Shown here one piece after another: positions 4,119 through 43,600 of a DNA stretch of 46,110 nt (within the stretch, counting starts at the first letter, position 1; each line of letters opens with the position of its first letter). A model generated the notes under the pieces. It worked only from the letters and a program-made list of their open reading frames with translations. It was not told where the DNA came from and made no database searches. The stretch comes from Sarea resinae (taxonomy: Eukaryota): positions 186,001 to 232,110 of the forward strand of contig JAPEUD010000036.1 in assembly GCA_026026165.1 (NCBI GenBank), written 5' to 3'. A program made the translations under genes and the position numbers.

Positions 4119-6611
4119 TCACCGACCAGCCGCCTCCTGTCTCGTCGGCGCCCAGTTCTTCAACCACGTCTGAGCGCGGTCGAGATCCCCGCCCTCCGCT
4201 TCGAGCGCAGCGACGCACCATTCGAGCGCGTAGCCTCCGCTAGCACCAGCAGCAGCGCCGCCCTTCAAATGCATCTCGGGGTGCGCATCGCTCTTCTCAG
4301 CCGCTAGCATCTCCGCCAGCCCTCGGCGGCGCTGACTCGCCTCATCCACGCAGAAATGCAGCGGACTGCTCAGATCGCGCCAGGCGTCGACGGCGGGCTT
4401 GATAAGGGGTAGCACGTCTTTGGCGGACATTGCGACGGCCGCGCCCTCACTACCATCACCGCCACCACCACTTCCGTCGGGAACGATCCCCACATTCTTG
4501 CGCCCAGACTTACAAAATGCGTTCGAGCACCACGGCTTGCCGCAGCCGCTCATCATCTGCGCAAGATAGCGCCTCTCAATGCGGCGTTTCAGTGCTCGGC
4601 CCTCGGGGTCGTACATGCTGACGTACAGCGGCCCGAAGCAGATACTGCAGAGGCCGAGATCGTTGCCCGGGCCTTGGCCTATGCGGGCGCCCGCGCGCAC
4701 GTCGCCGTTCTTCCCCACACCGTCCAGCGTGCGTCCGCAGTTGACGTTCCGGCATATGCGCGGGGAAGGGCGCGACAGACGTTCTAGTGAGTGGTGCAGT
4801 AAGTGCGTGTGCATGTCGCGCAGGCGGACGCGAGCGCCGCAGAGGTGACACTCTGTTGTGCGGGCGCCATCGGCTAATTCGTGCGGTGTGAGATTCGAGA
4901 GAATGGATTCGGGGGGCGGAGAGGAGAGGGGATCGTCGGTGACGGGCACTTCGAGGTGGCAAAATTGGCATAGGTGGAGTTTGGATGGGCAGGTAGTTGT
5001 GCGGTGTTGGGCTAGAAGGGATAGGGAGGAGAAGACGGCGTGTTGGGGGCAGGAGGGGCAGGTGTGGGCAGAGTGCGATACTAGGGCGTGCTTGCTTTGC
5101 GACGTGCTTGTGTTGCCGAAGTTGCTGTCGTGGGGACAGTGCCAGTGATTGGTCCATTCTGGGGACGACTTTTTGAACACGAGATGGCAGTGCGGGCAGA
5201 GGATATTGTTGCGGAGACAGAAATTTTCGTGGAGCATCATCGTTCGCTGAGGGACTAATTGGTGGCAATTTTTGCAACGGACTTCGTCGGGGCTGGGGGC
5301 TTCTTCATCTAAGGTGGGGGAAGTGGATTCGGTGCTGGCTGAAGTGGGGTCAAAGGGTGTTGCGCGGATGTAATATGTTCTTGGTGGAGTCTTGCTGCTG
5401 GTGGAGTCATCTTCCGCATCTGTTGGATGTTGGTAGCCATGGACGGAGATCCAGATAGCTTCGGCATTTTCAAGTTCGATGTTAGTAGGCTGTATGCGGA
5501 TTCGTTTAGGATACTGGCTTGAGAAGTCGCCGAAGACGTGCTCGTCATCTCTTGGCTTTGCTCTCTGCCGTGAAGAGAAGGGACTGACGAACAGATCGAC
5601 CTCTTCTTCATCATCGACCCCGCTGATTTCGATCTCGAGTCCTTGAGATCGGTCCCACGAGGGTATCTCATAGTCGACGTATTCTCCCTCTTGCACTTGG
5701 CCCTGCTGACCTTCCCAGAGTTCCAGCTTCCCACCAACAGAGCTCCCCTCTCTCGTCCCCGGAGCTCGCTGAGACTTCGCTATATGACGCTTCAGCGTCT
5801 CTCTAGCCTGTTCTTCGTTCAAAGCCTCTATGTCGACTTCCAGATCGGTATCAACAACGCAGATCCCATCGCCTTCTGGTTTAAATCCGTCGATAAGAAA
5901 CCTGAACTCGTCTTTCTTCCCCCCTGTCACTCGGCCGCTAGGTACCAGTAGTATTTCGCCGTTCGTCAGAGTGGTGAAATTCGCTCGGAGATGCTGTTCG
6001 AGGAGAGACTTCCAGTCCTCCGGATCGTAGCCGGCTTCGAGTGGGCGCAAGCGCACGTAGGTGCCCTTGGGTAGCTGTTTCGCATGGACGGTGATTCTCG
6101 GGAGCGTTTCATCGTCCCCCGTGAGATCATATACGACATGTCCCCCAGGATTTTCCGTGTCCACCCCATTGCTTTGTGCAAGTTTCGAGTCGAGCACAGC
6201 CTTATTCTCCTCTAGCCCCAGTGATTGCCGCAAAAACGTGCTTAAGCCGATCTCGCTCTCTTCCGCCGAGAATTCGCGGATACCCGCATACACCACCCTT
6301 CCATTCTGTGGGTTCACCAACCGAAATGTCAGCGGATGTGGCAACTGCTGCTGCTGGTCTCTAAACTGTGCTCTTGCCCTCCGCTCAGCCGCATACGAGT
6401 GCGGGTTATATGGGTCAAATTCCGGCGTGTATGACTGTTGCTGATCTTGAGCGGGGACGTTGACTGTAGCAGCACTGAGGAGTTGCTCGAGGGCTGATGC
6501 AGGCAGTAGGATCTTATCGCCGGGTAGGGATCTGCTTGATGGTGAAGGCGGCGTTACGGAGAATTGAGCTGACCATTTCAGAGAGATGGCCTCTGGCATT
6601 GTCGTAGTCAT
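4119..6611 (-). CDS. UFD1-domain protein (non-canonical Ufd1 paralog, 830 aa) with multiple C2HC-type zinc fingers, an AZUL-like Zn domain and a C-terminal UBA-like helix bundle
   Basis: Intronless ORF. UFD1 UT3 motifs GDKILLPASALEQL, VYAGIREFSAEE, LPKGTYVRLRP, LRANFTTLTNGE. Repeated CxxC..H..C fingers. IERRYLAQMMSGCGKPWCSNAFC resembles the E6AP AZUL domain. Confidence 0.88.
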   Translation of the reverse strand: MTTTMPEAISLKWSAQFSVTPPSPSSRSLPGDKILLPASALEQLLSAATVNVPAQDQQQSYTPEFDPYNPHSYAAERRARAQFRDQQQQLPHPLTFRLVNPQNGRVVYAGIREFSAEESEIGLSTFLRQSLGLEENKAVLDSKLAQSNGVDTENPGGHVVYDLTGDDETLPRITVHAKQLPKGTYVRLRPLEAGYDPEDWKSLLEQHLRANFTTLTNGEILLVPSGRVTGGKKDEFRFLIDGFKPEGDGICVVDTDLEVDIEALNEEQARETLKRHIAKSQRAPGTREGSSVGGKLELWEGQQGQVQEGEYVDYEIPSWDRSQGLEIEISGVDDEEEVDLFVSPFSSRQRAKPRDDEHVFGDFSSQYPKRIRIQPTNIELENAEAIWISVHGYQHPTDAEDDSTSSKTPPRTYYIRATPFDPTSASTESTSPTLDEEAPSPDEVRCKNCHQLVPQRTMMLHENFCLRNNILCPHCHLVFKKSSPEWTNHWHCPHDSNFGNTSTSQSKHALVSHSAHTCPSCPQHAVFSSLSLLAQHRTTTCPSKLHLCQFCHLEVPVTDDPLSSPPPESILSNLTPHELADGARTTECHLCGARVRLRDMHTHLLHHSLERLSRPSPRICRNVNCGRTLDGVGKNGDVRAGARIGQGPGNDLGLCSICFGPLYVSMYDPEGRALKRRIERRYLAQMMSGCGKPWCSNAFCKSGRKNVGIVPDGSGGGGDGSEGAAVAMSAKDVLPLIKPAVDAWRDLSSPLHFCVDEASQRRRGLAEMLAAEKSDAHPEMHLKGGAAAGASGGYALEWCVAALEAEGGDLDRAQTWLKNWAPTRQEAAGR

Positions 6612-6823
6612 GACCGCGCAGAGTCTAATAACAGATATGCGCTATACTATGCGAACAGAGGAGAGAAGAAAAAGTTGAAGAAAATTATTCGATGTGCAAG
6701 GTGAATGCGAAGATCACTGGGCATGTTTGAGATGATTGAGATGGTCGAAATGGCTGTTGTTTTGCCATTTCTGGAAGCTTCCTACTGCTGCCTTAGGTAA
6801 GCTGGGAGGTTTCGTCATGAGGC

Positions 6824-11231: not shown

Positions 11232-12260
11232 ATGCAGCGAGATGCCTCTTTTCCATCCGATGCATATCCATCGAAAGTAAAATATGTACGGAAATCCAAA
11301 GACATCAATTGTGCGCTGGAAGAGCCATCAAACGAGCTGGGGGGCGGGGCCCTCAACGAGCTCACACAACGGCTGGCAGCAGTCTCAGTCTCGACTGAGA
11401 GTCACGCAGAGCCGTCTACTCCGCTGTCTCATAGCTCAGAGAAAGACAATGTCCTTCCAAGGAACCCTTCTGGTACCGCAAGCGAGGACGAACTTGCAGA
11501 CAGAGAAGCAGGCAATTCGCCCTCTTCCGTCATGAGCAACAATGATGCGGCAGAAGTCCGACGATCTCTCGCTTCAATGATTTCAGAGGCCTCTCAATTC
11601 GACTACGATACCTACCACAGGCGTCAAAATTCTGCTGGAAAGACATTTATTATCTACACCGTACCCGCTGCCATATATGAGCTTCCGAACCCAACAAAGG
11701 CAATCGCCCGGCTTGAGGTTGGCTCTTCATTTACGCCTGTGAGCGCAATAAGCGGGTGGAAGCACATGGAGGAGGGGCACTATGTTATCGATGCAGAATA
11801 CTGGACCGATCAAGTACTCAAGATCTCCAAGATTATCGGGCACGACCTTGAATCGAATACCACGAAAGACTGGGGGGTTTCTGGACGTTACCAGGCATGT
11901 CATGCGGAGAAGCAGTTGGTCGCGTACTTCATCAGAAAGCATGTATTTGAGGACGAGATGCGGAAGATGCAGATGAAAACTAAACATCTTCTCACAAATG
12001 CGTTTGAGGAATCGGCGACTCGCCAGGCATTTGAAGAGAAATGCAACGAGATCTTACCGAATGATTATATGAGGCTTTTAGGTCTCTGGGCGGACCCACC
12101 GCGATCTTCAATCCACCATGGTCTTATTTTTGTCAACTACAAGACGTGTCCGGATTGTTTTAACTTCATCAAAAAGGTGGAGCAGATGTACGGGCTGTCC
12201 TTTGACGTGCGATACCAGAAGCCCATCACAAATGGGACGACACCATGGTGTGTTCTCTAA
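11232..12260 (+). CDS. Zinc-dependent deaminase-fold protein, SsdA/DYW-like C-terminal domain; N-terminus may extend upstream via an acceptor at 11180 and a micro-exon at 10973-10999
   Basis: Intact 342-aa ORF. ACHAEKQLVAYF (HxE, 11901-11909) and KTCPDC (CxxC, 12147-12158), plus AISGW and GRYQACHAE context. In-frame GCTGAC..TAG acceptor at 11180 and GTATGT donor at 11000. Confidence 0.75.
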   Translation: MQRDASFPSDAYPSKVKYVRKSKDINCALEEPSNELGGGALNELTQRLAAVSVSTESHAEPSTPLSHSSEKDNVLPRNPSGTASEDELADREAGNSPSSVMSNNDAAEVRRSLASMISEASQFDYDTYHRRQNSAGKTFIIYTVPAAIYELPNPTKAIARLEVGSSFTPVSAISGWKHMEEGHYVIDAEYWTDQVLKISKIIGHDLESNTTKDWGVSGRYQACHAEKQLVAYFIRKHVFEDEMRKMQMKTKHLLTNAFEESATRQAFEEKCNEILPNDYMRLLGLWADPPRSSIHHGLIFVNYKTCPDCFNFIKKVEQMYGLSFDVRYQKPITNGTTPWCVL

Positions 12261-13255
12261 TGTCAAGCGATTCAACTTTCCGTCTGTCTTTGAACATTGG
12301 AGCTTCCCGAGGCGTGACCTATTGCCTGCCGATCAATTGCTCTCAATATTTTTTTCTTGTTTTTCGCATAGTTTTAGCAAAGTTAAGAGCTTTATTCGAA
12401 CTCAAAGTACCTCTGAGCTCCTGCGCTGCCTTCTGACATGTATTCCCATCGATGACAAACGCAAAATGAAAAGGACGAAGTCAAATCATCTACTTCTCCT
12501 AGCACATTTATATCTTGCTGTTCTGTCTCCGTCACAAAATCACTATATAATTGATTATCAATACTGATCTCTATATACTTAAAATCAAATAAGCAGGCCT
12601 TTTTGTTGCCAATTTCTACGACGAATTTCGTACGGTACGGCTCCCATCCGCTTGATTCGATTCATCAAACACAAAGACAATCAACGAGTCTTGACGACAT
12701 ATGACAGTGAATGATGTATATTCTGCCGCCCGCCTTATCCAAACTATTCACTAATCGCACAATTCACTTCTCGACGTCCTAGAGTATCACTGCTTTGAAA
12801 GTGCTCTGTGTCTTCCTACTTTTTGCTCTTCTTATTACCACCATGAAACCGATCATCATGACAGAGAATCGCACACCTAGCGAGCAAGGTCCTTTAGACC
12901 AAACCACTACCTCTTGGAAGCAAAAGCATATACTATAAGAAGAGATACTAGTATAAGCTAACCTAAGACATTTCCGAAATTATTAATAAGAGGGAAATTT
13001 AGTCTATATACTTATGATTGCAGAATGACTAGGACGGCGGAAAATTTACTATGAAAAGATAGGACACTAAGAAAATATAGACACTCCAGCAGAAGCTCTT
13101 AGAGGAGAGATAATTACCTACTAGACCGGGCGGAGAACCAGGTAGTCCTGGAGAACCACCTCATGGCAAGGGGGCAACCAGCAACAGGCGGGCTTCGAAC
13201 GTGGAACCTGGCTACCTCCAGTCGAGCATACTTCCCCAGTGTTTAAGGGAGAGTC

Positions 13256-13621
13256 TCAATCCATCGCGGTCCCTGTGAAACCGATCATCTCAATAGTATC
13301 GGTAATGGCACAAGTCTTGGGCCCCGCTTGGTAAGTTGGCCCGAAAGCCACTCTCGGGAAATAGCTCTGGTAGAGGAATTCCTGTTGATCGTCAAATGTA
13401 GAGAAGGCTCCCATATGGTCGTCCATAAATAACTCAAAAGTTGCCGACCCATTGTTGCCAATGATTGAGGCTATAGTCGCGACCTCTTTAGCAGCAGGCA
13501 TCGGTCCAAATACCATGTGCGAGAAACAAGCGTAGGTATGTGGCGCTCCTACTAATCCTTGCCCCATCCTCTTGTAGAGGTATTGGCCATGGGGAGTTAT
13601 AATTCCGGCTTTGAACTCATC
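13256..13621 (-). mobile_element. Ty3/gypsy-type reverse transcriptase fragment (catalytic region, FMDD)
   Basis: DEFKAGIITPHGQYLYKRMGQGLVGAPHTY...FELFMDDH...FPRVAFGP matches the LTR-retrotransposon RT motifs (KTAF/GxY/MPxGL/YxDD equivalents). Confidence 0.85.
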
Positions 13622-14757
13622 CCCTGTATTAGGACAACTCCGGCAACGGCCAGCTTTGCCTTCGCCGGCCCGACACCACTTCCCGCAGACATGTAGAGCT
13701 CGACCCCTTGGGTTATTAACGAATGAAGTACTGTATGCCATTAAGGATGCATACAGTCAATTAATATTTGCCGACTATTATCCAGGTCAAGTCCTTCCGG
13801 TAGCTGATCTATCGCCATTGAATTTCCGCCTGATAGCTAACTGCTGATTAGACGTCTTCATCCATCATGCCGATTACTCTGACGCAGCGCGCAGACACTA
13901 TCTGCAATCGTGGTACTGAGTCCACACCTTAGTGTGTCAAGTGTCTCGGACAAGCCCACCGTCCTAAGCTCCGAAAAGTCTTGCGTTTGCTGGGAGCGTG
14001 ATACCAGTCTCGGACGTGGCTGGGGGGGGGGGGGGGGGGGGGGGGGGTGGGGGGGGGGGCATAAAGAATGAGGCTAGAGATCTCAGAAGCACTTGAGAAC
14101 TACGCAGAAGTCCGGGGCCTCTCTGCAACAGCGGGAATAAAGGTGTAGAACATTACCCTGCAGAGGACAAAAGCCACCTCTAGCTTCGAATTTGCGGGTC
14201 CGATGCCACTGCCTGGCAACCGCAAATTCCAGACTTTTCCCGCGCTGGGTAAGGCGGTCCAAGAGCCTGGCCAGCTCAGTATCCTAGTGAGGGGCTTCGA
14301 TAGCCTCTCTGTGGATACTAATGTCTGGCTGGAGCTTGCGGGTCTCTTTACCCAGTGGGAGAAAGAAGTCATGCTTGTGTTCGTCCTAAGCAGAGAGTGG
14401 CTGGCGGAGGGATGTGGATTGCCAGGGGCTGCAGAAGTGGCATGGCATGACTATATTCACATCCCACTGCGACATCTCGCCAGGTGTCTCCATTTGATGG
14501 CACAGTCTCGGACGGAAGTGTGCCCAGTGTGTGCAGATCGGAAAGGAATGTTGAGCGGTAAGTATCCTTCCCTTGAACTGGCAGTTGACTGGCGTAGGCT
14601 AATGTTTGTACAGATCCCTGCTGACATGGACCATGAGCCATCGGGCATCCGCGCTATTTTTCGACAAGTTGTCGCCGGCACGAAGAACGTCGACGATCTC
14701 AGGCCCCTTGTCGACACTTCTTCTTCTAGGAAAGCTAGCGCTAGTGAACCTACATAG
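13611..14757 (+). pseudogene. Degenerate serine-recombinase (resolvase/invertase)-like gene, copy 1; interrupted by stops and a poly-G tract
   Basis: Reads ...VCQVSRTSP...[polyG]...EALENYAEVRGL...LSILVRGFDSLSVDTNVWLELAGLF...VMLVFV...WHDYIHIPLRHLARCL. Coding origin is supported by a paralog at 17341-17640; the fold assignment is inference. Confidence 0.5.
14022..14059 (+). repeat. Homopolymer G26-T-G11
   Basis: Seen directly. Confidence 0.95.
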
Positions 14758-15361
14758 AAAGTTAGCTCCCTCTCTTCCTATGTCTAGTATGCTCCTATTC
14801 GATAATATCGGAACAATATAGAAGATGTCTAGTATTATTCGAGGATAGCTTGCTATTAAGCAAAGATACCAGCTTATAGATACCTACACGCTGGTTCCAT
14901 AACAAATGTTAAGGTTTTAGGAGAAGGTATATTAAAGGGTACTTGCTAATTATAAGATATAATGCGATTCAGTGAATGCAGACTACCTATACAATATTCC
15001 CTTTCCAACTAATTCACCTATCTATACCTCAATTCATCTTACCCGCCTATACTAACATTATTGCCGCATTAGAACGCAGCCTTCTCTTCTACAACAATCT
15101 CTTTGCCTAATTCATTATTATTATATTATACCATTGTACTAACACTCAAGAAGACAAAGAATCACGGGACAAAGACACACAGAATTATCAGATACAGACA
15201 AGGAACTAGTCGACAAACAGGTAGAGCGGTCAAGAAGAAGCAGTCGAAAAGAACCTAAATTTCAAGTTTCTGTGAGTGAGTTGAGGTTGTTGAGGATAAG
15301 GTGATACCTATCTACCCTGACCTTCCTACAGGTACTAGCAATAACAATAATAGTGTGGTTA

Positions 15362-15670
15362 ATGCAAGGATCCTTCCTAATGTTTCTACAGGGCAAGAGC
15401 GCCTAGACTTTGGAAGAAGAAGGTTTAGGATAGTCCAACATCGCGCGGGATATCAGTCGCGTCTGGTTCAACAGCAGCGAAAACATCTTCGACAACCGTA
15501 AACAGGTGAGCGAGGTTATCGAGCTAATAAGGGGACATGTAGGGAGGGGAGCATCAATGCCCTTCAGGATCTCATCAGCCCCGTCACCACTCCGACTAGA
15601 CGACGATATGGATATGGACATGGATGAAGATGAAGATGAAGATGAAGATAAAGATGTTGGTGGAAGATGA
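15362..15670 (+). pseudogene. Possible HMG-box-like relic with acidic tail
   Basis: MQGSFLMFLQGKSA*TLEEEGLG*SNIARDISRVWFNSSE...DDDMDMDMDEDEDEDEDKD. FxxF and IxxxIxxxW spacing resembles HMG helices 1-2; weak. Confidence 0.3.
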
Positions 15671-16035
15671 GATACTGGATAATCATTTCCCCTGCCGTTG
15701 GCTTGGTGGTGACTGTGGCAGAGGCGCTTGTCTCGAAGAAAGAACTGGATATAAGTCGAACAGGCCACAGGCTTGCGGAACGGCGGAACTGTCGAACTGT
15801 ATTAGCTGACTGACACAACGAACAGACGCATATAAAGTCTCACCTGAGGGGCCTTGTCTCAAAGAGATGCCAATGGGAAGAGTGCAATACTAAGCGCAGG
15901 GGAAGGGAGAGGGGAGTTATAGCGTGGGATAGGCTGCCTAACACGACACCCTTAGTGACACACAACGCCTTGATTTGTCTCTGCAAGGGAGAAGTTTCTG
16001 CAAGACTAATCACTCGCAGTCTACAAATCCCGTGC

Positions 16036-16179
16036 GTCCTTTATAAAATCATACACTATTAGAAGACTGATAGGTTGCTAATACCTAAGGCTACCTTCTA
16101 TTATCTAGTCTATAAAAATATATAGGACACGCTCATAAAAGACCTCTCAACTGACTAGCTCAAGAAACTCAGGTACACG
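16036..16179 (+). pseudogene. Heavily C>T/G>A-mutated histone H3-like fragment (alphaN-alpha1 region)
   Basis: VLYKIIHY*KTDRLLIPKATFYYLVYKNI*DT aligns without gaps to H3 [32 protein letters not shown]: 12 of 32 identical and 8 more restorable by C>T/G>A reversal (TAT<CGT, AAA<GAA, TAG<CAG, CAC<CGC). Confidence 0.75.
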
Positions 16180-16391
16180 ACTTCCCAAGGCAGGCGAAAA
16201 GCGAGGTTGATCTGAGAATTCTTGCTGGATAGCTATATGATATCCTAGGAGCCAGAAAAAAAGCACGAGAACTAATATACAAACATACCTGCGCAACAAA
16301 GAGGCGCAGGGGAAAAAGAACCATGTGTAGGAGGAAAGTTTTAGGCTTCACCTCCCTGTTCGCGAGCTCTTAAGAAGATCTTACCGCGAGA

Positions 16392-17338
16392 TTGTTTGGC
16401 CGGTCTATCAAGTCAATGTGTGATAAGGAGAGAGAACGATTTATGCTGGACCAATTCATGCCCGGTCGACAAAGAGGTCTTGGCTACAAATCTAGAGAAT
16501 GGCGCAAATACAGTAACGCCAACCATCCTACGCTCGCTCCAGGGTCAATCTTTGCTTCTTTTTATATCCGGAACGTCGTTCGAAGTCTCACCCACGGATA
16601 TCAGCGCTTATATCATATCAACGCTTATATCGACATCGTACAGACTTCCAGCCAGTGGGACTCGATCCGGAAGGAGGAAGATCGCCCCGGCCTCTTGTAT
16701 TGCACGCATCTGCAGAGGATCTTCTTCGAGAAGGAGGTAGACGAAGAGCCCCTATGTGTCTCCTCCTTCACGTTCAACGAAAGATGGATTGTAAGAGAAG
16801 TTTTCGATCCTCTCCTGTTTGTACTATATTCTTTGATGAGTACCTAGAGGATCTAGCTAGAAATCTCGACCTAGACCTAGACAGACCGGTTGACCTCGCG
16901 ACTCGCGGATAGAGAGTTCGCATCAGCTGGGCGAGGCGCTTTAAGAGCCCGGCCAGCTGAACATTCCAAGCGGAACTCAACCAATGGGTGGCCGAGCAAG
17001 CGAAGTGGGAATCAAAGCTCATCGACGACCTCACTACCACCCCGGTACCTGGCCTTAACCTTATCACACTCGAGACGACAGAGCAGAAACTAGATCGATT
17101 GGCCACGATGGTAGACTCCATTCATACCATTGTCACTGCCCTCCAGGATAGTGTCAAAGACTATTCCGACGATCTCAAGAGCCACTCCACCCAGATCGCT
17201 CAGGTTGAAGAATCCGTGAACCGGAAAGCTGATGCTATCGACCTATTGGCGGGATCCATTGAAGCGATCTCTGATGACCTTCGTGACATAAAGAAAGACC
17301 TAGGTGCCACCATGCCAGCTAGCCATGGTCAATACTAA
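16392..17338 (+). pseudogene. Frameshifted relic of an unknown gene ending in a coiled-coil
   Basis: ORFs 16392-16847 and 16655-16912/16988-17338 read as one protein-like sequence across a frameshift and stops. Heptad pattern LDRLATMVDSIHTIVTALQDSVKDYSDDL. Confidence 0.4.
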
Positions 17339-17340
17339 GA

Positions 17341-17640
17341 GCATTATTACTTGTCCGAGGGTTAGACGGTCTCTCCGTGAGCGCCGAGGCATGGCTAGAG
17401 CTCGCAGCCCTCCTATTGGCACAAGACGTAATGCTTGTGTTTGTAACATGCACTGGGGCAGTAGAGGCCTTCGGGCTGGACGGGGGCCTAGTATGGCACC
17501 ACAGCAGCAAAGCAAAGCATCAACGCCTTACATAGAAATTACGAGGTAACAGCCTCTCAGACCCAAAAAGCTTACTTTATTCTACAGACATCGATCTCCT
17601 ACCTGCACATCGGGCTGCGCCAACTCGCCCAGTGCCTCGC
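17341..17640 (+). pseudogene. Degenerate serine-recombinase-like gene, copy 2 (truncated, frameshifted; not in ORF track)
   Basis: ALLLVRGLDGLSVSAEAWLELAALLLAQDVMLVFV...GLDGGLVWH (frame from 17341) and YLHIGLRQLAQCL (17600-17638) are clearly paralogous to 14284-14490. Confidence 0.6.
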
Positions 17641-17918
17641 TGGCGAGGCGCCTGCCTCGATGGCGGGGCGCCGGTCTCGCGGGTGGGCAGCCTCCTGCAG
17701 GCCGTCTGGGAAGAAGGTTTCGCGGGTTGCCGCGCTCTGGGGGCTAACCGGCAAAGAATCGCGACAGAGCAGAGGGGGAGACATGCCGCAGGGCGATCGA
17801 GATAATAGATGACACGACGCGATCCTCTCGCGCTGGAAACCAAGCTTAACTTTCCAAGACTAGGGATTTAATCTATGGCATTAAAGCTACTGATCTCGAA
17901 GACCCAACCAGAGGCACT

Positions 17919-18113
17919 TTCAGTCCAGTCTCTCAGACCGGAGAGAGATTCATGCTGGTAAGTGTTGACTATTCTATCCTCTTTCTAATCGCAGAACCAG
18001 TATCAAAAGCAACCTCAGCAGCGACACTCGATATATTCGAGCGGCGAGTTGTGAACACATCTGGTTGGCCAGAAACATTTTACACCGATAACAGGATCCA
18101 TTCTACTGGTTGA
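17919..18113 (+). mobile_element. LTR-retrotransposon integrase (rve) core fragment (not in ORF track)
   Basis: FSPVSQTGERFMLVSVDYSILFLIAEPVSKATSAATLDIFERRVVNTSGWPETFYTDNRIHSTG*: LVxVDY, GWP and YTDN(G) integrase motifs. Confidence 0.85.
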
Positions 18114-18661
18114 CTATTCCCAGCGAAGCTTCTAATGATTCTCACCTCTAGACCAGGCAGGAGATGTCTCTTGATTATGATATTCCTTTAATCAGACAGT
18201 TGAAATACACCTTGATTTCGAAATCCAATACATACCCAAACAAACAAAAGCTCCTTGAGGTCGCTTCCTTTGTTTCAGATAGTTTCGACCGTTAATCACT
18301 AAGATACCGTTTTTCTTAGAATACTGCAAGGAGATAGAATCATACAAGAGGCTTTTGATAGAAAGAGCGTCGCTTTAAAAAGAGTATCTGAGGCCTGAAA
18401 GGCGTTTGTTCTACTATGTTTTTTCTGGATATCTGGACTAATCAGAGGTGAATACCCTATTCACAACCTGATGCGTACTATAAGCAGAAGTCACTGGTCG
18501 GACCTGGAGTGAATTTGATGGGCTGCTCGCTACAGCATATATACGCAGCGTATGCTCGCTCTGCTCTATTCTCCTCTTGTCCCTACTATAGACAAAAGGA
18601 TCCAAAATGTACGCATTTAAAACTAAGAAAACAATCTTAGTGGCGCCATACCTGCTGATAT

Positions 18662-19018
18662 TATTACCAAGATCTTTATTAAGTAATTAGAGGACTCTGC
18701 TAGAAAAGTCAACCTAGATATATATAGGCAGTCCTACTACTCTACCTAGCAATAATAGGAACAAGCTAGTAACTAGGGAAACCTTTTTAGAGAGACTTAT
18801 TTAATAGAAGGTTAGCTACTACTTGCTATATGTTTTAAGACAATATAAGCAATTTACTGGCCTTAGACCTAGCTCGCTACCTAAATGTCGGCGATTTCGC
18901 ATTTATGACGCTCATTCTGCCGGCGCGCCTTGTCGGGGAGAACTGCCACGAAGAGGTCATTCAAGCGATGAAGAATCGTACCAAGGACTACCTACACAGA
19001 TAGCAGTAGTATGTATAA
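18662..19018 (+). pseudogene. TpA-rich degenerate ORF of unknown family
   Basis: One frame gives protein-like text (NLLALDLARYLNVGDFAFMTLILPARLVGENCHEEVIQAMKNRTKDYLHR) broken by TAG/TAA stops; no family recognised. Confidence 0.3.
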
Positions 19019-19531
19019 AGTAAATTTACTAGTGATTGTAAACAACGCTTATTTAACTATTGTCTACTAGGTACTATCTCACAATCTTGTATGTTGAGAA
19101 ACAAGATGTAGCCTATTAATACGACTAATTTAAAGCCTTGATCCCCTCTCAACCTATGAAGATCTATAGTTAAGCCTTAGAGTCTTCTTCTACAGGGTTG
19201 GCAGAAACAGCGTCGACCTCGAACAGAAAACCCTAACTAATAGCATACTCCTGAATTTGTTCGCATACCTGCTAATTAAAACTTACATAAATATAAGGAG
19301 TGTGTTTGGGAGGTTGGTAATCTCAGACGTCTTTAGGACACCTCATGTTCTCAAAGGCACATACAGCTACAAGTAGCAGGATCCTTAGAAAACTATTCCA
19401 CAGCAAGGTAAGTAGATACTTCTCTACAGAGACAGAGGCTGCGCCAAGGAATACTAAAGTTGTAAACATTGGCCGTCTGCAGGAGCTAATCTTGCGTTCC
19501 AGTCAATTAACAGCATTACAGCTTTGGGCCC

Positions 19532-20399
19532 TTGACTTATAATCCGCCACAAGTTCTGGATCGCTATCGAGATCGTGCAAACATCCTGATCGATAAAGCC
19601 GACCTGGTCAGAAGCTTCGACGTCGGGACGGACGAAAAGAAAATGGCACAGACAGAGATGAATCGCCTCCAGGGCGACTATACCATTCGGGTTGTTGAGA
19701 CCGATTTTTTCCCTTCAGGCAATCTGATTGCATTTTGCGTGCTCGGACTGGACTGGATGTGTATGTCTTGATCCGAGAGACAACTTTTTCAAACAGCTTC
19801 GCCTCCGCTTCGACAGTCTAGCAGGCAGACCGGTCAACTTCCTCCTGCTGGTCCTGCCGCTGCTCAGCTTCAGGCCGAGGCCGGATTTGACCAGTGAATG
19901 TAATAGATATAGATGACGACTGACCGCGTGGCTGCGGCTAAAACTTTTTGACGAATAGATCAGAATTTCCACAATAAAATTCCGAGAGGCATTTATACTG
20001 ATGGAGGAAGCTGAACGTGCCTATCGTGAGCGAAAGTTCTTTTCTTATTGCCGCGACTATGGGATACAGTTGCCTCTGACGACGATCTAGACTCTGAACT
20101 TACTGAAGTGGGATTGACGACTTCATCAGTCATGAATACTTTTATAGACACAATCACTTTAAGAGAGTGATTGCTTCGCCTTCGCCTTCAACTACGTTAT
20201 CCGCCGCCGCACTGCGGTTTCTATACTTTCGCTATGTCGTTACTTTCCTTGGCTGGAAGTTGCGCAATCCTAAGGGCGTCGCGGAGAAACTAGAGCATCA
20301 GGGAACGATCTGGGCGTCGCCAGGGCCGTATCTTGTAAGTACAACTCTGTAATAGTCGAGGGAACTGAATCAGGAGATCCTCAGTCTGCTGGGTCACTG
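19532..20399 (+). pseudogene. Relic of a fungal HNH (HNH_2-type) endonuclease-domain gene
   Basis: C-terminal block ALRFLYFRYVVTFL...IWASPGPYL resembles the RxLYFxY...WxSPGxYL tail of fungal HNH proteins. The HNH core itself is eroded or frameshifted. Confidence 0.45.
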
Positions 20400-20642
20400 A
20401 CGTTGCCAACTCGCGACGATAAGTAGCTGGTCTTCTGGTCGTAGGGAACCCAGTACTCCCTTCCCTGAACTCCTGTTCTTCTTCATGAACTATATTCGCG
20501 CTTGTCTCAGCCTATTCTTTCTTTGCTGTTGCCCGGACTGGATGAATGTGGTTGTTTTCCCCGACTCTGATGAGTTCACGACTTGTATCCGCGGGATCAG
20601 GAGGTTTCTTTATTCGTTTTGTCTGACGTTGAATGATTCTCA

Positions 20643-21167
20643 ACTGCTGACGTTTGGTTAGGCGATCATCCAATGACCAGCGATGAGCGTCAAAAGGCAA
20701 AACAACTGATTTTGACTTGGGTGGATCTGTTCGCGACAGACATCTGAGACATGCCCGCAACAGATCTAGTTGTCCATCGCATTCCTACGTATCAGGACAC
20801 AGTGCTAAAGAGTGCGAAGATTCCTCTCTATACGCCCGAGCAAATTCGATACATGAAGGACACGTTCCTAGCACTACTCTAATCAGGAGTCATTACGCAA
20901 TGCGAATCTCTACAGGCAGCAAAAACAAAGTCCCTAAGGAAGAAATCAGGGAAGCTAAGAATAGTACACATCTTCTGTCCTATCAATGCAGCAACAATCA
21001 AATCGTATTATCCAGTGCGACAGATCGAGCCGATTCTTTCTAAATTAAGCAAGTCAAATTTAAAGGTTTTCTTCCAGGCGGATGCAGCAAATAGCTATTG
21101 GGCCATGAAAATGCACCCATCTCATGCGTACAAGTCGGCTTTTCACCGGTCCGACCAGACATGTTAG
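20643..21167 (+). mobile_element. Ty3/gypsy pol fragment, N-terminal half of RT, with two in-frame stops (not in ORF track)
   Basis: ERQKAKQLILTWVDLFATDI*DMPATDLVVHRIPTY...LL*SGVITQCES...KKSGKLRIVHIFCPINAATIKSYYPVRQIEPIL...FFQADAANSYWAMKMHPSHAYKSAF. Stops TGA 20745 and TAA 20880. Confidence 0.9.
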
Positions 21168-22189
21168 CGAGGAAAATCTCAGATTATACACTTCCTAAGA
21201 CGTTTTATAGCCGAACTACGTTTAAAGAGCCTGCAGATCGTCTGCTAAGCCCTAGCAGCGATTCTAGAGAGAATGCGGGACTCGGCGAGGGTCTCGCTGC
21301 AGAGATTAGAGCTAAGATGTTCACTAAGAAGACTTCTGAAGATAATAAGGAGGCTAAAGACAGCGAAAATAGCATCGACGAAGTTGAATAGAGGCCTCTC
21401 AAGCACTGAGTTCTGCTGTCGCTCGCCAGATAATAGATGACTATATCATATACCTTTGTCAAGGAATTGGCCGAAAATGGGATTGATATTAAGAGGATCC
21501 TGCGCATTGGTGAATTTCACTTCGCTGCCTTCTGGGTCCTTGGCCATGGAAATATGGTGCTTTGTCCTCGTGGGCCGCGGGCTATTAAGTGCCGTTTTGC
21601 AAAGGGTGTTGTTGTCTGTAAGGCATCTATCTCTATTCAGATAGCAGAAAACTCCTGCCTTAATTTAAAGGAAGAGTACGGCTAACGTGGAGCAGATTAG
21701 ACTAGGTAAGTCAACCTGCGAGTCACAGCAAGTCAGCATTTGTGAAATATCTTAACAATTCAATTCACGCTTAGACTGAGTCGCAACTTTTCGGGAATAC
21801 CTATCACCACACGATGAGGATTTACTTTAACAGTTCCCATATTTGCTTCTATTCTTCAAATCTCATAGGCATATCCATGAGGGGGAGTAGCACCACGGCT
21901 CTTCGAGTCATATCAGACAGCTCTCTGCAGATATTGAGAGTGAGAGGGGACGATGCTTCTCTCAGAGATGGAGTGCGTGCCGTCTCAAACGCTTCCTATC
22001 TACCTTGTCGTCTATAGACTGCCAGCAAACGGTGTTCATTCCCGATGAGATCAACAGTGAGTGGGTCTTTCTCTACAGGCAGGGAGGGTACAAAGAACTC
22101 GTGTAACTTCTCCTTTCTTGCACTTTCGTGTATACCTAGCAGGCACTCTTTCCCTCTGCTTCCTCCTGCATACAAATAACGTACTTACT

Positions 22190-22662
22190 AAGTAGTTTTC
22201 GCAAAAATCGTCGAACGTCTCAGAATCACAACAACGTCTCACGACGATGTTTGTGTCCAGCCAGCCAGCAGCCAACAAGCACTTTTTGCCGTTGTTTTTC
22301 CATTTTGGGGTCAGTCAGAGCGCACGCACGAGCTCAACCTTCCTGCTTGTTAGAGAAAAAGCATTGCCTTCCCAGTGCACTCAACTTGCTTATTCTTGCA
22401 GACTGGTTGAGTATCTCTGCGACGCTTCTTTGGACATGACTTTGGCATTCTATTTCTATACCCTCCTAGCCCCTATTGTCTGTTATCCATCCTGTTTGTT
22501 GTTTTTTGTTCTTGATAAACCAATCTAATGTTCTCTGCACGTTCGTTTGTTTGGTTGTGCACAGGGACGGTACGCAAGGACTACTTAGAAAGACTGAGTG
22601 AGGACCACGTTAGGACGATGTAGCGAAGAAGTAGTTTTGGCAGAAAATCGTTGAACGTCTCA
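22190..22662 (+). repeat. Imperfect 33-bp direct repeat (22190-22222 and 22629-22662)
   Basis: aagtagttttcgcaaaaatcgtcgaacgtctca versus aagtagttttggcagaaaatcgttgaacgtctca (2 mismatches, 1 indel). Confidence 0.8.
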
Positions 22663-23401
22663 TCTAGTCAGTCGTAGAGCCCCCCGCCATATACATGCAG
22701 ACAGAGTGAGTGAGGTAAGTCGTAAACAAAGCTAAGCTACCACCTCATCAGGGCCAACTCTTATAGCCACGGCAGCTTTCTCTTTGGTAGAGGTGATCCG
22801 ATAGATAGACACTATCTTCAGCAAAGGAGGTAATGTTTACGAACGTAAGAGAGGCAACAAAGGCGCGAGGGGAGGGCGGCTCGGCGGCTTCCTTGATTGA
22901 CGCGGAAGCCCTTGTGCTAGGCAGCCATCCCATCCCGCCTTTCGCCGCGGGGATGCAGACCAACTAAACGCCCAAGCAGTCAATCCCAATTACCTTACCT
23001 ATGCCAACGTGTACATGAATGGATTCTTCTAAGCTCTTCGATCCCCAGCGTTCTGTCATCAGTGTGGAATCATAAGCTTGTCTCAACTGCGTCTCCCTCG
23101 TGCCTACCTTCAGTTCGTCGAATATTGCCATCGCGAAGACCCTGACAGAGATACTCACTCATGGATACCGAAGCCATCCAGGACGACTCTTTCTCTATGA
23201 CCCCTAACGACGGACCAGCACAAGCACCTGGACTAGGAATTGGGAGAAAGCTCCTCATAGCTGTGATCATTCTTGCTCTGTAGGTCATCCGAACACCGTG
23301 ATTGCTTTCGAGTACTATCTAACAAGCGCCTCAGAACCACCTACCTGGCTTATTCCACCTTTCCATCTTCGGTTACTGGCCGTCCAGTCAATATCGGGGA
23401 G

Positions 23402-23968
23402 ATGAAAACCCGTCCTGGCCCGGGCAGCTGCCCCCAAAATACATATGATACGCAGAAACGACTACGCTTCGGCCGGCAAGGTGCCGTTGTCTATGGCTGG
23501 CCTTCAGCCGGAGGGATGTTATACAGGAGCGTCGAGCCTTTAGAGCTCGAGTTCCTCGGGATAGACCGGTTCTCCGAATCTCAAAGGTCGCAGGACCCCG
23601 CCGAAGAAGATGCATTCTGTCGACAGCTCTACAAGATTGGAGCAAGGTGGTATGAGCACGAGCGGGAACTCCAAGATCTGATGCTTGGCGACAGAAAGTG
23701 GCCACCACGCCTTGAGTTTGGCTGGCCTGCGAATGGTGGAGTATGGGCGGTGAGAAAGGTCAAAGAACCTGACCTACGAAAACATCCCTTGGACCCTCCT
23801 TTGGTCGAGCGAAAGCCATGGGGCAAGCTCTACATGGCGCTCAACATGGAAGAGCGATGCCGGGTGATCGAGGAATTAGGCGGCACGTTTTTTCCTAACC
23901 CCGAGGAGTGCGACTATCTGACGGGCAAGGCATTCCTCGAAGCAGCGAGCGAGATTCGAGAGGAGTAA
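23402..23968 (+). CDS. Fungal hypothetical protein with a two-fold internal repeat (GWP.xGG...C..l..iG..f/w)
   Basis: Intact ORF with likely ATG at 23402. YGWPSAGG...FCRQLYKIGARWY and FGWPANGG...RCRVIEELGGTFF. Confidence 0.7.
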   Translation: MKTRPGPGSCPQNTYDTQKRLRFGRQGAVVYGWPSAGGMLYRSVEPLELEFLGIDRFSESQRSQDPAEEDAFCRQLYKIGARWYEHERELQDLMLGDRKWPPRLEFGWPANGGVWAVRKVKEPDLRKHPLDPPLVERKPWGKLYMALNMEERCRVIEELGGTFFPNPEECDYLTGKAFLEAASEIREE

Positions 23969-24387
23969 TGTAATGCTGTCACCCTGATGCAGGGATCCGT
24001 CTTGGTCAAGAGAGAAGCAACCCGGTGTAATTACCTGTTCCACGCCATTACCTTAGTAGTAGTTCTTTCAAGTGCTTGCACAAAAACATTGCGAAAAATT
24101 AAAGCTTGTAAATCACTGTACTTCATAGCTGAAAAGAAAGAGAAGTTCATAGGCTTCAAAGCAGCAGGAAGTCAGGTGCTAAAGCAAGCACGCTAAACCG
24201 TGAGAGGCAGCCACTGTCCCCGAGAGTATTCGTACCATCGTACTGTATGTTTTGGTTCGGAGTCTTCCGCTTGCTTTGTTTACATCCGTGTACCTACCTA
24301 CCTACAGCACCCGACACGTTGAACCATCTCGACACAAACATCATCCACCCGAATACTTGCACAAAACGCCCTGCTGCTATCCTGGAC

Positions 24388-40693: not shown

Positions 40694-43600
40694 ATGAATC
40701 GATTTCGTAAAAACAGAAAGGCGAAGGACTTGGCGGAGACACCAATGCGACTCTCAAATGACACCGATAGCCCGCGTTCTCCATCGTCCATTGTCAAGCC
40801 ATTCAAGAAGGGCAAGAAGGCGGCTCCCGAACCAGAGCCGAAACCGGTCGTTGACCTATCTACGGCCCTTCCTTCAACGGATGATTTCAGAACGAGTCTT
40901 CTGATGCCCAAGCTCTCGGCTCGCTTCAGTATGTTGAGGGAGCAGGATGATCCGACCTCGAAGTTAGGGAAAGCGAATGACGATAGCGTCCTGTTTCCCG
41001 ATAAACGACAGTCGAGGCTCGCGAACCATGGCTTTCTTGGGGGCGGACTATCCGATATCGATGAGGTGGCTTCGATCCGGAGCGCGGTACGCCCGCCATT
41101 TGCGTATAGCAGAACAGAGTCCTACGGCTCAGGCGAGGGATACGGAACTGATGATGATTCCTCACACAATGGCAGCATGATGAACCGGTCCAGGCCAGGC
41201 GAGGGCAACGTTTTATTTGGTGGAAGGCAAAAGGTTTACAAAATTCCCAACAAATCTGGCTCGGCCGAGGGCGAGGCCAGGGACTCTGGAAAGGGCATGG
41301 GCAGAGTCCTCTACGGAGATGACGTGAGCATGTCAAATTTCCAAAAGTTAAGAGAGGAAGAGAAGAGAGTCCAACGGGAAAAAGAATTAGAGGAACTTGA
41401 ACGCGAAGACGGCTTGATTGATCCGACGCAAGAGCGAGCTTCTTCGCCACTACCGTCCAGCTATAACAAGAACCGTGACACCTCTTCCTCGACTACTTCT
41501 GGCCCTTCAAATACTCGTACTTCGACAGCTGCAACTTCTATCGCGTCTCAGGGCGCTTCTTCTGTCAATTCTCCTACAACATCCGTGCCCATTAGCGCGG
41601 AAGCTGGTGCGCCTGGCCTCGATCGATCATTGACCAAATCCCGGAGGCTATATGAGCAAGGTCTGGATCAACACCTTCATGAGCAGCAGTCGTCGGCTAT
41701 GAGTAGGCTCCAAACTCTGCAACGTCAGCGAACCTTGAACGGGGGTTCTCCAAATATATCTCAGGCAAGGAGCGCATCGAATCTACATGATCGATTTCAG
41801 CGAAGTAGTCCACAATCAGGACCATCGGTCTCTGCGACGACTAGTCCTCCTCCATCCGCTCCGCTCATCGGCCCTGGAAATTTCGATCTCGGTTTTGGCG
41901 ATCCTAAACCAGCTAGGGATAGTCCAAGTCCAAGCGTTCAATCACCTCCTCTTAGTCCTCCAGTCAGCGAAGGCGAGGATACCTCTGCGCTATCCTCAGC
42001 CATCGAGCCCAAAGATCGAGGGAAGGCCACTGCTCTCGGAGCTTTCAATAAGCCTCAAAATAAATATGATGAAAAGCAATACTCACAGCGTCAGCTACAG
42101 ATGCAGCAAGGAAGGGAGAGCCCCTCGATAAGGAGATGGTCACCCCCAAGAGCCGCTTCGCGTACCGGCGCGGCTGGCCATGGACGTTTCCGCAATGAGT
42201 CAAACGCTTCCACGCGTTCTCGATCTGCCTCGGGGGACACGAAGAGGTCAGATCAAGACCACGGTGGCTATCAACGAGCCGCTGGTCATCTACCGTCTGG
42301 TTCGTCTGATAGGAAGGACGACAAATCTTTGGCGGAAACAACGGGAACTTTTCTGGCACCTATGAGCGGTAGCGAGAGTGAAGCAGAACCTGACGAAGAA
42401 TCACAGAGGTCTCGAATACAACCAACACCACAAGCCCCAGCTCCTACTGTAAAACAATCCAGGTCGACACCGCCGCCACTACAACCGGAATCACTGCACA
42501 TGGCTTCAAAAGCGCGAGAACCTCAGAGATCCGTGAATGAAACAGCTGATGATCATGAGGACCAGGCCAAAGCTGCTTCGGCACCACGAAAAGGATCCGC
42601 TGTGAGCTCTGCAAAATCTGCCGAAATCCAAGCAGATTCCCCCACTCTTGGACCAGCAGCCGGCTTGAGCGGCCTCATTCGTCAGCATCTCCGCAACGAC
42701 AGTGGTCAATCCTCTATTTATGATGCGCCATCGCCCGATTTCTCTTCCAATTTCTCCCAAGATGATTCAAATTCGGCCGACAAGGGAATGGCAGCACAGT
42801 TTGGATATGCTAGTGGTGATCCGTGGGATTACGATGTAGATGAATCGTATCCAGATGCCTCTGACTCTTCTCGATTGAACGGCCCAGTCCGTAAGAACTC
42901 TGCTGCACCGCCTCCACTGAGTGTCAGAACAAAGAAGGCTCCGGATCAAGAACCTCGTACGAGCGACGAGTCATCTAAGGGCAGATCATGGGAGGATGAA
43001 TTGAGGGGCCGACATACGCGTGATCCGAGCACAGGCACGCAGCAAGAGAGGGAAGACTTTGCAAATGAGTTGGCTCAGCGACGAAAGATGGTCCAGGAGA
43101 ACTTGAGGACTCTAGCTGAGAACGAAAGCCGTTCTAGTAGCCCGGCATCGGAAATGAGAGAACCCCTCAGAGCTGGAAGTGCACTGAGCGGCAGGCTCAG
43201 GCCAAAGTCTAGTCGGGGTTCTATCAACCCTACAAAGCCGGAGAACACCTCTAAAGCCATGAGAATGTTGGGTTTGGGTGGTGCCAGCGGGGCTAGCCCT
43301 GGCAGCGAAGAGCACCGCCGTAAGGAGGAAGAACGGTCGCTACGTGATATCGTCAAAGGCCCGAAGGTTCCCTCGCACCCAAAGCCATTCCAACGGGGCC
43401 CACAAGACATCCTCAAAGATTATGAGCAGCGCCAGCGTGGTAGCCGCGAGACGGATCGAGAGACAGTACTACCTGCTGGTCGTTCTTCTCCTTCAATAGT
43501 GAGCTCCAAGGACTCATCACGAGAGAGGTCAAGTTCTGAAGTTTCTAGTGGGCGTTCAAAAAGCAGGGCCGGAAAGAATAGTTACGACGTTCACCACACG

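Follow-up and report, generated by a model that had tools for sequence, protein, structure and literature searches.

In Pyrenophora tritici-repentis, the H3-like gene H3L was transduplicated by a hAT element (Manning et al. 2013, PMC3538342). RIP-inactivated H3-like copies borne by hAT elements were described for Pseudocercospora fijiensis, P. musae, P. eumusae, Cercospora zeae-maydis, Sphaerulina musiva and S. populicola (Dhillon et al. 2019, PMC6710886). The genomes of these Mycosphaerellaceae contain 135-784 such copies each, with lengths of 71-100 aa and mostly corresponding to the third exon, and the RIPped copies share 51-55% nucleotide identity with the native gene. The element carrying them harbors a hAT domain, TIRs and 8-bp TSDs, and the copies are situated in large AT-rich blocks (PMC6710886). 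Full-text searches of the literature retrieved only these two reports on the capture of H3 into repeats.

The window analyzed here, i.e. the whole stretch of 46,110 nt from Sarea resinae, contains a short tract interrupted by stop codons that can be aligned with H3 when C>T/G>A changes are allowed for. Like H3L of P. tritici-repentis, this tract would represent H3-type sequence that an ascomycete carries in addition to its native histone loci. The P. tritici-repentis copies are intact, expressed, nearly identical to each other, present in tens per genome and little affected by RIP (PMC3538342), whereas the tract would be a broken fragment.

A tract collinear with histone H3

The translation of positions 16036-16179 in frame +1 reads VLYKIIHY*KTDRLLIPKATFYYLVYKNI*DTLIKDLSTD*LKKLRYT and contains three in-frame stops in 48 codons. 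The following features were assigned to this region:

16036..16137, + strand: 34-codon H3-like tract that corresponds in order to H3 residues 47-80 (from the end of alphaN through alpha1 to the start of loop 1)
16060..16062, + strand: in-frame TAG at the position of H3 Gln55, which is CAG in 65/73 fungal H3 sequences
16123..16125, + strand: in-frame TAG at the position of H3 Gln76, which is CAG in 48/73 and CAA in 25/73 fungal H3 sequences
16168..16179, + strand: letters LRYT, proposed to equal H3 LRFQ after a 9-codon insertion; no better than decoys

Natural H3 genes from IMG/VR contigs, retrieved by a degenerate search pattern based on a short H3 motif, served as H3 references; seven of the IMG/VR matches were confirmed as PF00125 and are sister loci of the reference L008. 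Codon usage was compared with 110 fungal-type H3 loci from metagenome contigs, which yielded 104 segments; 93 of these encode one 34-residue peptide and represent 73 distinct DNAs. A few minority peptides among the 104 fungal-type segments (L041 onward) end inside residues 47-80. Their breaks, some of which follow residue 68 or 71 or precede residue 57 or 63, may mark introns that vary between fungi.

The alignment of the tract with H3 is collinear, in frame and free of gaps. For the 32 codons from 16036 to 16131, comparison with the canonical H3 core L008 reproduced the 12 identities reported in the first-pass annotation. Eight positions revert to the exact H3 residue upon TpA reversion, two further positions are other C>T/G>A changes (A>V and R>H), and 10 positions lack any transition explanation. 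The substitutions that had been listed, namely R>Y three times (TAT), E>K twice (AAA), Q>stop twice (TAG) and R>H (CAC), are correct, and the differences attributable to transitions alone amount to 10 in total. Collinearity with H3 extends two codons beyond the segment originally delimited, to position 16137 (H3 residue 80), and 12/34 codons of the whole tract are beyond explanation by transitions.

The remainder of the histone was sought on both sides. No C-terminal part of H3 (residues 81-135) was found in 16138-16900 in any plus-strand frame, with or without reversal, as 129-196 of 500 decoys were equal or better. The letters LRYT are indeed present downstream of the alignment, but their proposed equivalence to LRFQ does not exceed this level of chance. 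Likewise, nothing better than decoys was found for the H3 N-tail in 15400-16035 (all plus-strand frames, with and without reversal). Overall, 129-489 of 500 decoys scored as well as H3 in the tests of the two flanks (630 nt and 760 nt). A relic of H4, as would be expected from a divergent H3-H4 gene pair, is not present in the window.

Scoring with reversal of RIP-type mutations

For RIP-aware scoring, each codon was given the best BLOSUM62 value among its possible pre-mutation residues, and all six frames were scored. No reversal is permitted in model 0. In model 2, the T of a TpA may be a former C and the A a former G, and model 3 permits only one change per TpA. Model 1, which permits any transition anywhere, was discarded as a scoring scheme because its scores drift positive, so that full-length H3 aligns anywhere.

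With the reversals of model 2, no other place in the six frames of the window matches H3 as well as the tract, which scores 86 versus 52 for the next best. Under model 3 it scores 70 versus 51, and its values range from 70 to 75 with one change per TpA; three of the rescued positions require that both bases of a CpG were changed. Without reversal (model 0), the composition-corrected z of the tract is 5.30, which is second to a z of 5.36 at position 43328, and 22/150 permuted queries equal the tract. Without reversal, the match is thus no more than chance.

The latter result favors an explanation by chance resemblance. The tract would then be an ordinary non-coding, TpA-rich spacer amid broken retrotransposons, one frame of which happens to contain TAT, AAA and TAG codons that revert to Arg, Glu and Gln, residues that are frequent in this part of H3. 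With 19 TpA in 102 nt the tract also has the greatest freedom for reversal in the window, and the match begins and ends exactly with the TpA-richness while the rest of H3 is not nearby. Furthermore, two TATAAAA boxes are located 69 nt apart in the tract, and the pseudo-repeat (L/V)REI...Q of H3 has the same spacing of 23 codons; the two (L/V)-TAT-AAA-A boxes alone contribute 29 of the 86 points. We regard a chance resemblance as a serious possibility, of somewhat less than even probability.

Against this explanation, all controls aimed at the tract remained far below 86. None of 1500 dinucleotide-preserving shuffles of the tract reached this score (mean 40, sd 5, maximum 63; Gumbel p 3-5e-6), and none of 200,000 permutations at fixed register reached the score of the tract. 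The best of 824 natural ORFs (159,158 aa) scored 68 against the tract, three Gypsy pol proteins of 1100 aa scored 57 at best, and a natural H4 scored 43 on the tract and no more than 47 in the window as a whole. Ten ORFs from the top-8 lists of two models were checked; none is a histone and none has a Pfam family. The notion of an H3-derived sequence hidden by C>T/G>A changes therefore passed the comparison with shuffled TpA-rich controls.

Natural DNA gave a corresponding result. This control comprised 308 kb around H3 genes of viral contigs with the true H3 masked, and it includes contigs of 26-30% GC in which hundreds of windows equal the tract in TpA content. With the 34-residue segment held fixed, z did not exceed 5.01 and the 34-codon sum did not exceed 48 at any of 525,507 offsets, as compared to a z of 6.92 and a sum of 86 for the tract, which again argues against chance. 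Local alignments in the contig of 26% GC reach 77-81; these extend over 80-111 codons at low density and lie over non-histone ORFs. Within the window the next-best z values are 5.11 and 4.96, and exponential fits to the tail predict 0.001-0.008 offsets with a z of at least 6.92. When all 34-residue segments of H3 were used, the best off-diagonal z was 6.02 versus 7.01 for the tract.

Window-wide nulls are heavy-tailed, which favors chance to some extent, as does the off-diagonal z. None of 300 shuffled full-length H3 queries reached 86 anywhere in the window, but 4/900 did so in a second set (maximum 92; Gumbel p 0.0025). These high-scoring decoys owe their scores to the Lys/Arg/Ala-rich tail, which gives low-complexity matches. 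When the 89-aa canonical core L008 was the query, the tract scored 91 and the decoys 55 +/- 5, with a maximum of 77 and 0/600 reaching the tract (Gumbel p 8e-5; 2.6e-4 under model 3). Depending on query and null, window-wide estimates of p vary from 8e-5 to approximately 7e-3, a modest significance. A match of this kind has a chance probability of about 1e-5 at the tract itself; for any place in the window, the value is about 1e-3 to 7e-3.

A further test considered only the mismatches. With the 12 identities taken as given, 8 of the other 22 positions are rescued by TpA reversal, compared to 3.3 +/- 1.5 expected from permutation (p 0.005); the corresponding p is 0.016 under model 3 and 0.003 when any transition is allowed. 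Such a rescue is itself improbable by chance, and the test supports the match independently of how the tract was noticed. Taken together, a collinear H3 match beyond composition-matched controls was found when C>T/G>A changes are allowed, which points to descent from H3.

Conventional searches

The tract remained undetected by ordinary searches, and this consistently negative outcome favors chance resemblance. A 120-aa read-through of the tract matched no Pfam family at E <= 10. A search of the PDB yielded no histone, the sole match being a dihydroorotase (E 0.56), and an exhaustive phmmer search against 1.84 billion representatives retrieved no histone and a single match, P0003. This match was rejected as an artefact, since P0003 is a 1424-aa tandem-repeat translation that was matched in 27 stretches. 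An H3 HMM built from the fetched genes gave the tract an i-E of 2.2 and -3.0 bits. In tblastn, the tract obtained E values of 0.9-39, poorer than a low-complexity match of the H3 tail elsewhere in the window. Thus, membership in PF00125 is backed by no significant profile match in Pfam, the purpose-built H3 HMM or tblastn, and no complete fold (alpha1-L1-alpha2-L2-alpha3) is present in one open frame. Rfam returned nothing, the search for tandem and inverted repeats around the tract returned nothing structural, and nine small ATG-initiated ORFs around it are absent from the protein collection.

Scoring by TpA reversal in combination with shuffles of the tract and natural AT-rich DNA separated the tract cleanly from the background where Pfam, HMMER and BLAST detected nothing, which shows that claims of this kind can be put to a test.

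Codon comparison with fungal H3 genes

Arg49, Arg69 and Arg72 are encoded by CGT in 66, 56 and 61 of the 73 fungal H3 sequences, respectively, and the tract contains TAT at all three positions. At Arg53, where 44/73 sequences use CGC, the tract contains CAC. The Arg codons of the tract therefore split between CGT and CGC precursors like those of real fungal H3 genes, which is evidence against chance. Glu50 and Glu73 show GAR>AAA, and Gln55 and Gln76 show CAG>TAG. Tyr54 is TAT in the tract and TAC in 72/73 fungal sequences. The tract codons AAG, TTC, GAC, ATC and GTC are unchanged. Accordingly, the fungal codons TTC (73/73), AAG (65/73 and 70/73), GAC (63/73) and TAC (72/73) are either kept in the tract or altered only in the direction of RIP. 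Other codons fit poorly. ATA at Ile62 differs from the usual ATC (67/73), CTA at Leu61 and Leu70 would have the RIP precursor CTG, which occurs in only 17/73 and 16/73 sequences, and ATA at Ala75 deviates in its third base from the usual fungal codons.

On average, the 102 nt of the tract comprise 47 sites identical to fungal H3, 25 differences in the direction of RIP, 7 reverse transitions and 22 transversions; nucleotide identity to the fungal segments ranges from 40 to 52%, for which the RIPped H3 copies of the Mycosphaerellaceae, at 51-55%, provide a precedent. A simple decay model fits best when half of the C/G sites are mutated and approximately 40% of the sites are randomised, with a log-likelihood ratio of 21 nats at fixed register. 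Codon detail beyond the amino-acid pattern adds about -1.9 nats, i.e. it is neutral to slightly negative. The non-fitting codons look random, with transversions at about half of their sites. Both the need to randomise approximately 40% of the sites and the random appearance of these codons count in favor of a chance resemblance.

The non-RIP differences (TDR, IPKAT) had previously been taken to suggest a divergent H3-like or CenH3-like variant. However, canonical H3 scores 86-93 on the tract and divergent natural H3 only 70-84, and many position-specific codons match canonical fungal H3 as well. A divergent variant is therefore not indicated. A word-based search with residues 33-80 revealed no H3-like family with TDR or IPKAT (60 candidates, none at E <= 10). 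From the sequence, these differences look like plain decay.

RIP signature and copy number

The tract has the highest TpA density of the window with 19 TpA per 102 nt, a value tied by 18.66-18.82 kb and 18.98-19.08 kb. Customary thresholds for the RIP indices are 0.89 and 1.03. TpA/ApT amounts to 19/13 and (CpA+TpG)/(ApC+GpT) to 6/10, and this TpA excess with CpA/TpG depletion places the tract on the RIP side. The RIP-like signal is limited to approximately 100 nt, and both flanks are of ordinary composition. Had the H3-homologous piece alone been repeated, a TpA peak in the tract between ordinary flanks is what one would expect. TpA-rich tracts, in which any RIPped relic has to lie, make up about 0.8% of the window. 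The repeat lengths on which RIP is known to act in Neurospora exceed 100 nt, and the tract would be a shorter substrate than these unless it was once longer, which counts against a relic. The RIP-like indices are patchy along the window, with signals at 14.5-15.5, 16.0-16.5, 18.5-19.5, 20.0-20.5, 22.0-23.0, 24.0-24.5 and 45.0-46.1 kb.

Genomic copies of the tract were looked for in the probable source run, in which 15664-16686 is covered by a single contig and has no paralogue at a likeness of at least 80%, a limit below which copies escape this comparison. Two further runs of the same study (X2 and X3) contributed no matching contigs. At the same likeness, contigs of the source run contain paralogous pieces over 14.0-14.4, 17.2-18.0, 18.8-19.2 and 20.4-22.4 kb. 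That the tract is single-copy and carries no TE signature counts in favor of chance resemblance. Between window positions 12000-24000 and the paralogous contigs, 163 transitions and 81 transversions were counted; this ratio of approximately 2:1 is below the expectation if RIP alone drove the divergence of the paralogues. The source-run contigs break at a 38-nt poly-G run (14022-14059) and at a GATGAA/GATATG microsatellite (15605-15656).

Transposon relics around the tract

The window contains ordinary fungal genes, among them SAM50/Omp85 (777-2042), a UFD1-like zinc-finger gene (4119-6641, minus strand), Fungal_TACC and the glucosidase II beta subunit. Protein taxa place the window in the Ascomycota, and its proteins fall into clusters of one. 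An ORF of 342 aa at 11232-12260 (plus strand) matches SsdA_C with an E value of 8.8e-21; it corresponds to an annotated NCBI nr protein in a cluster of one. SsdA_C, which forms the C-terminus of a bacterial toxin that deaminates single-stranded DNA, is an unusual domain in a fungal gene. The ORF borders a RIP-like region. No long open frame is present between about 12.5 and 23.5 kb, where the following relics were found:

13265..13624, - strand: Ty3/Gypsy-type pol fragment (reverse transcriptase), aa 251-370 of the relative P0004, 59% identity
14281..14448, + strand: protein-level repeat, copy 1 (the "recombinase-like relic"), no Pfam family
17323..17532, + strand: protein-level repeat, copy 2, 46% identity over 56 aa to copy 1
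17913..18110, + strand: Ty3/Gypsy-type pol fragment (integrase core), aa 810-876 of P0004, 37% identity
20589..21140, + strand: Ty3/Gypsy-type pol fragment, aa 71-257 of P0004, with a break (aa ~251-257) shared with the minus-strand piece at 13624

The reverse-transcriptase piece is 52-59% identical to proteins with RVT_1, RNase H, integrase zinc-finger and rve domains. Judged by protein likeness, the identifiable transposon relics near the tract are Ty3/Gypsy-type pol fragments. A derivation of the tract itself from Gypsy pol was considered and dropped, as no match was found. The shared break point in pol would be explained by a single inversion of 7.5 kb (13625-21140) with one break inside the reverse transcriptase; the H3-like tract is located inside this putative inverted segment. 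An open frame of 125 aa with coiled-coil character at 16961-17338 (plus strand) has weak Pfam matches only. A paralogous source-run contig skips 16887-17354, which indicates that this frame is part of a repeated unit.

It had been proposed that the tract is histone cargo of a DNA transposon, either hAT-like or recombinase-encoding, that carried a divergent or CenH3-like H3, was inactivated by RIP and now lies between two recombinase-like relics. H3-like genes on hAT elements do exist in P. tritici-repentis (PMC3538342) and in the six Mycosphaerellaceae (PMC6710886), and a weak protein-level repeat does flank the tract at 14281-14448 and 17323-17532. However, the recombinase-like nature of these relics could not be upheld: apart from their repeat likeness, they have neither a Pfam family nor a homologue, and the flanking 202-aa ORF (14149-14757), which had been termed recombinase-like, likewise has no homologue and no Pfam family. 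Both repeat copies sit in stretches with paralogues elsewhere in the source run, while the tract is single-copy at a likeness of at least 80%, and the identifiable neighboring elements are pol pieces. In the six-frame read-through of 12500-23500, Pfam detected no hAT, recombinase or other transposase domain, and no family at E <= 1 except a weak coiled-coil; none was detected in the single ORFs either. This silence of Pfam regarding hAT is weak evidence because Pfam also missed the Gypsy pol relics located there. Together with the better fit of canonical H3 and the lack of any H3-like family with TDR or IPKAT among the 60 candidates, these observations make a transposon-borne divergent H3 very improbable.

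Origin of the tract

The explanation that we prefer is that the tract is probably, though with little more than even confidence, a non-functional, RIP-type-mutated fragment of canonical H3 coding sequence that covers residues 47-80. The H3 copy could have originated as a retrocopy, by TE capture or by segmental duplication. Its partner in RIP may have been the native H3 gene or sister copies that were subsequently lost. The remainder of H3 would have been deleted, and the rearrangements that fragmented the neighboring elements would also have worn down and shortened the H3 piece. Because of the three in-frame stops in 48 codons and the absence of a histone fold, the tract cannot make a histone. 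It therefore encodes nothing and has no histone function, and nothing suggests a functional histone variant.

Several findings count against a relic of H3. The tract comprises only 34 codons, is single-copy, differs from H3 by approximately 22% transversions and has no other part of H3 nearby. In addition, no standard method detects it, whereas the published RIPped H3 copies were retrieved by plain tBLASTn. The 12 codons beyond explanation by transitions, the three rescues that require two changes in one CpG, the share of randomised sites in the decay model and the modest window-wide significance also weigh against a relic. RIP of captured H3 has been documented in six Mycosphaerellaceae only, so that the prior probability of meeting an H3 relic in a random ascomycete window, which we guess to be 1e-4 to 1e-3, is low. 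The likelihood ratio exceeds this prior by roughly 1- to 6-fold, and the posterior is soft because the prior is a guess. It appears unlikely that the tract is the last trace of an independent capture or retrocopy of H3 into transposon-rich DNA, without hAT and outside the seven documented species.

Comparison with described histone H3 sequences

If the tract is a decayed H3 fragment, it represents one more case in which a copy of a housekeeping histone gene entered repeat-rich DNA and fell victim to the fungal genome defence. It would testify to an earlier H3 duplication that this defence identified as a repeat and mutated. The case would be barely detectable and would lack the hAT carrier by which the published families are defined. 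An independent, hAT-free capture, if true, would mean that H3 is captured repeatedly and then hit by RIP, and it would imply that RIP-aware scanning recovers relics where ordinary searches go blind.

The tract resembles canonical H3 (PF00125) in its collinearity with residues 47-80 and, at many though not all positions, in fungal codon choice. It differs from canonical H3 in that it has no open frame, lacks the N-tail, alpha2 and alpha3, and has no Pfam match. The centromeric variants (CenH3, i.e. CENP-A/Cse4) share the same fold region with H3; their likeness to the tract was judged only via divergent H3-like loci, which fit worse than the canonical ones.

The closest counterparts are the hAT-borne copies of the Mycosphaerellaceae (PMC6710886). 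Unlike these, the tract has only 34 codons, is single-copy at a likeness of at least 80%, is invisible to tblastn, forms a TA-rich island of approximately 100 nt and has no trace of hAT. In both cases, H3 coding sequence would have become riddled with stops and AT-rich by C>T/G>A changes within repeat-rich DNA. About half of the nucleotides remain identical to native H3 (51-55% there, 40-52% in the tract), and allowing for RIP improves the recognition of both.
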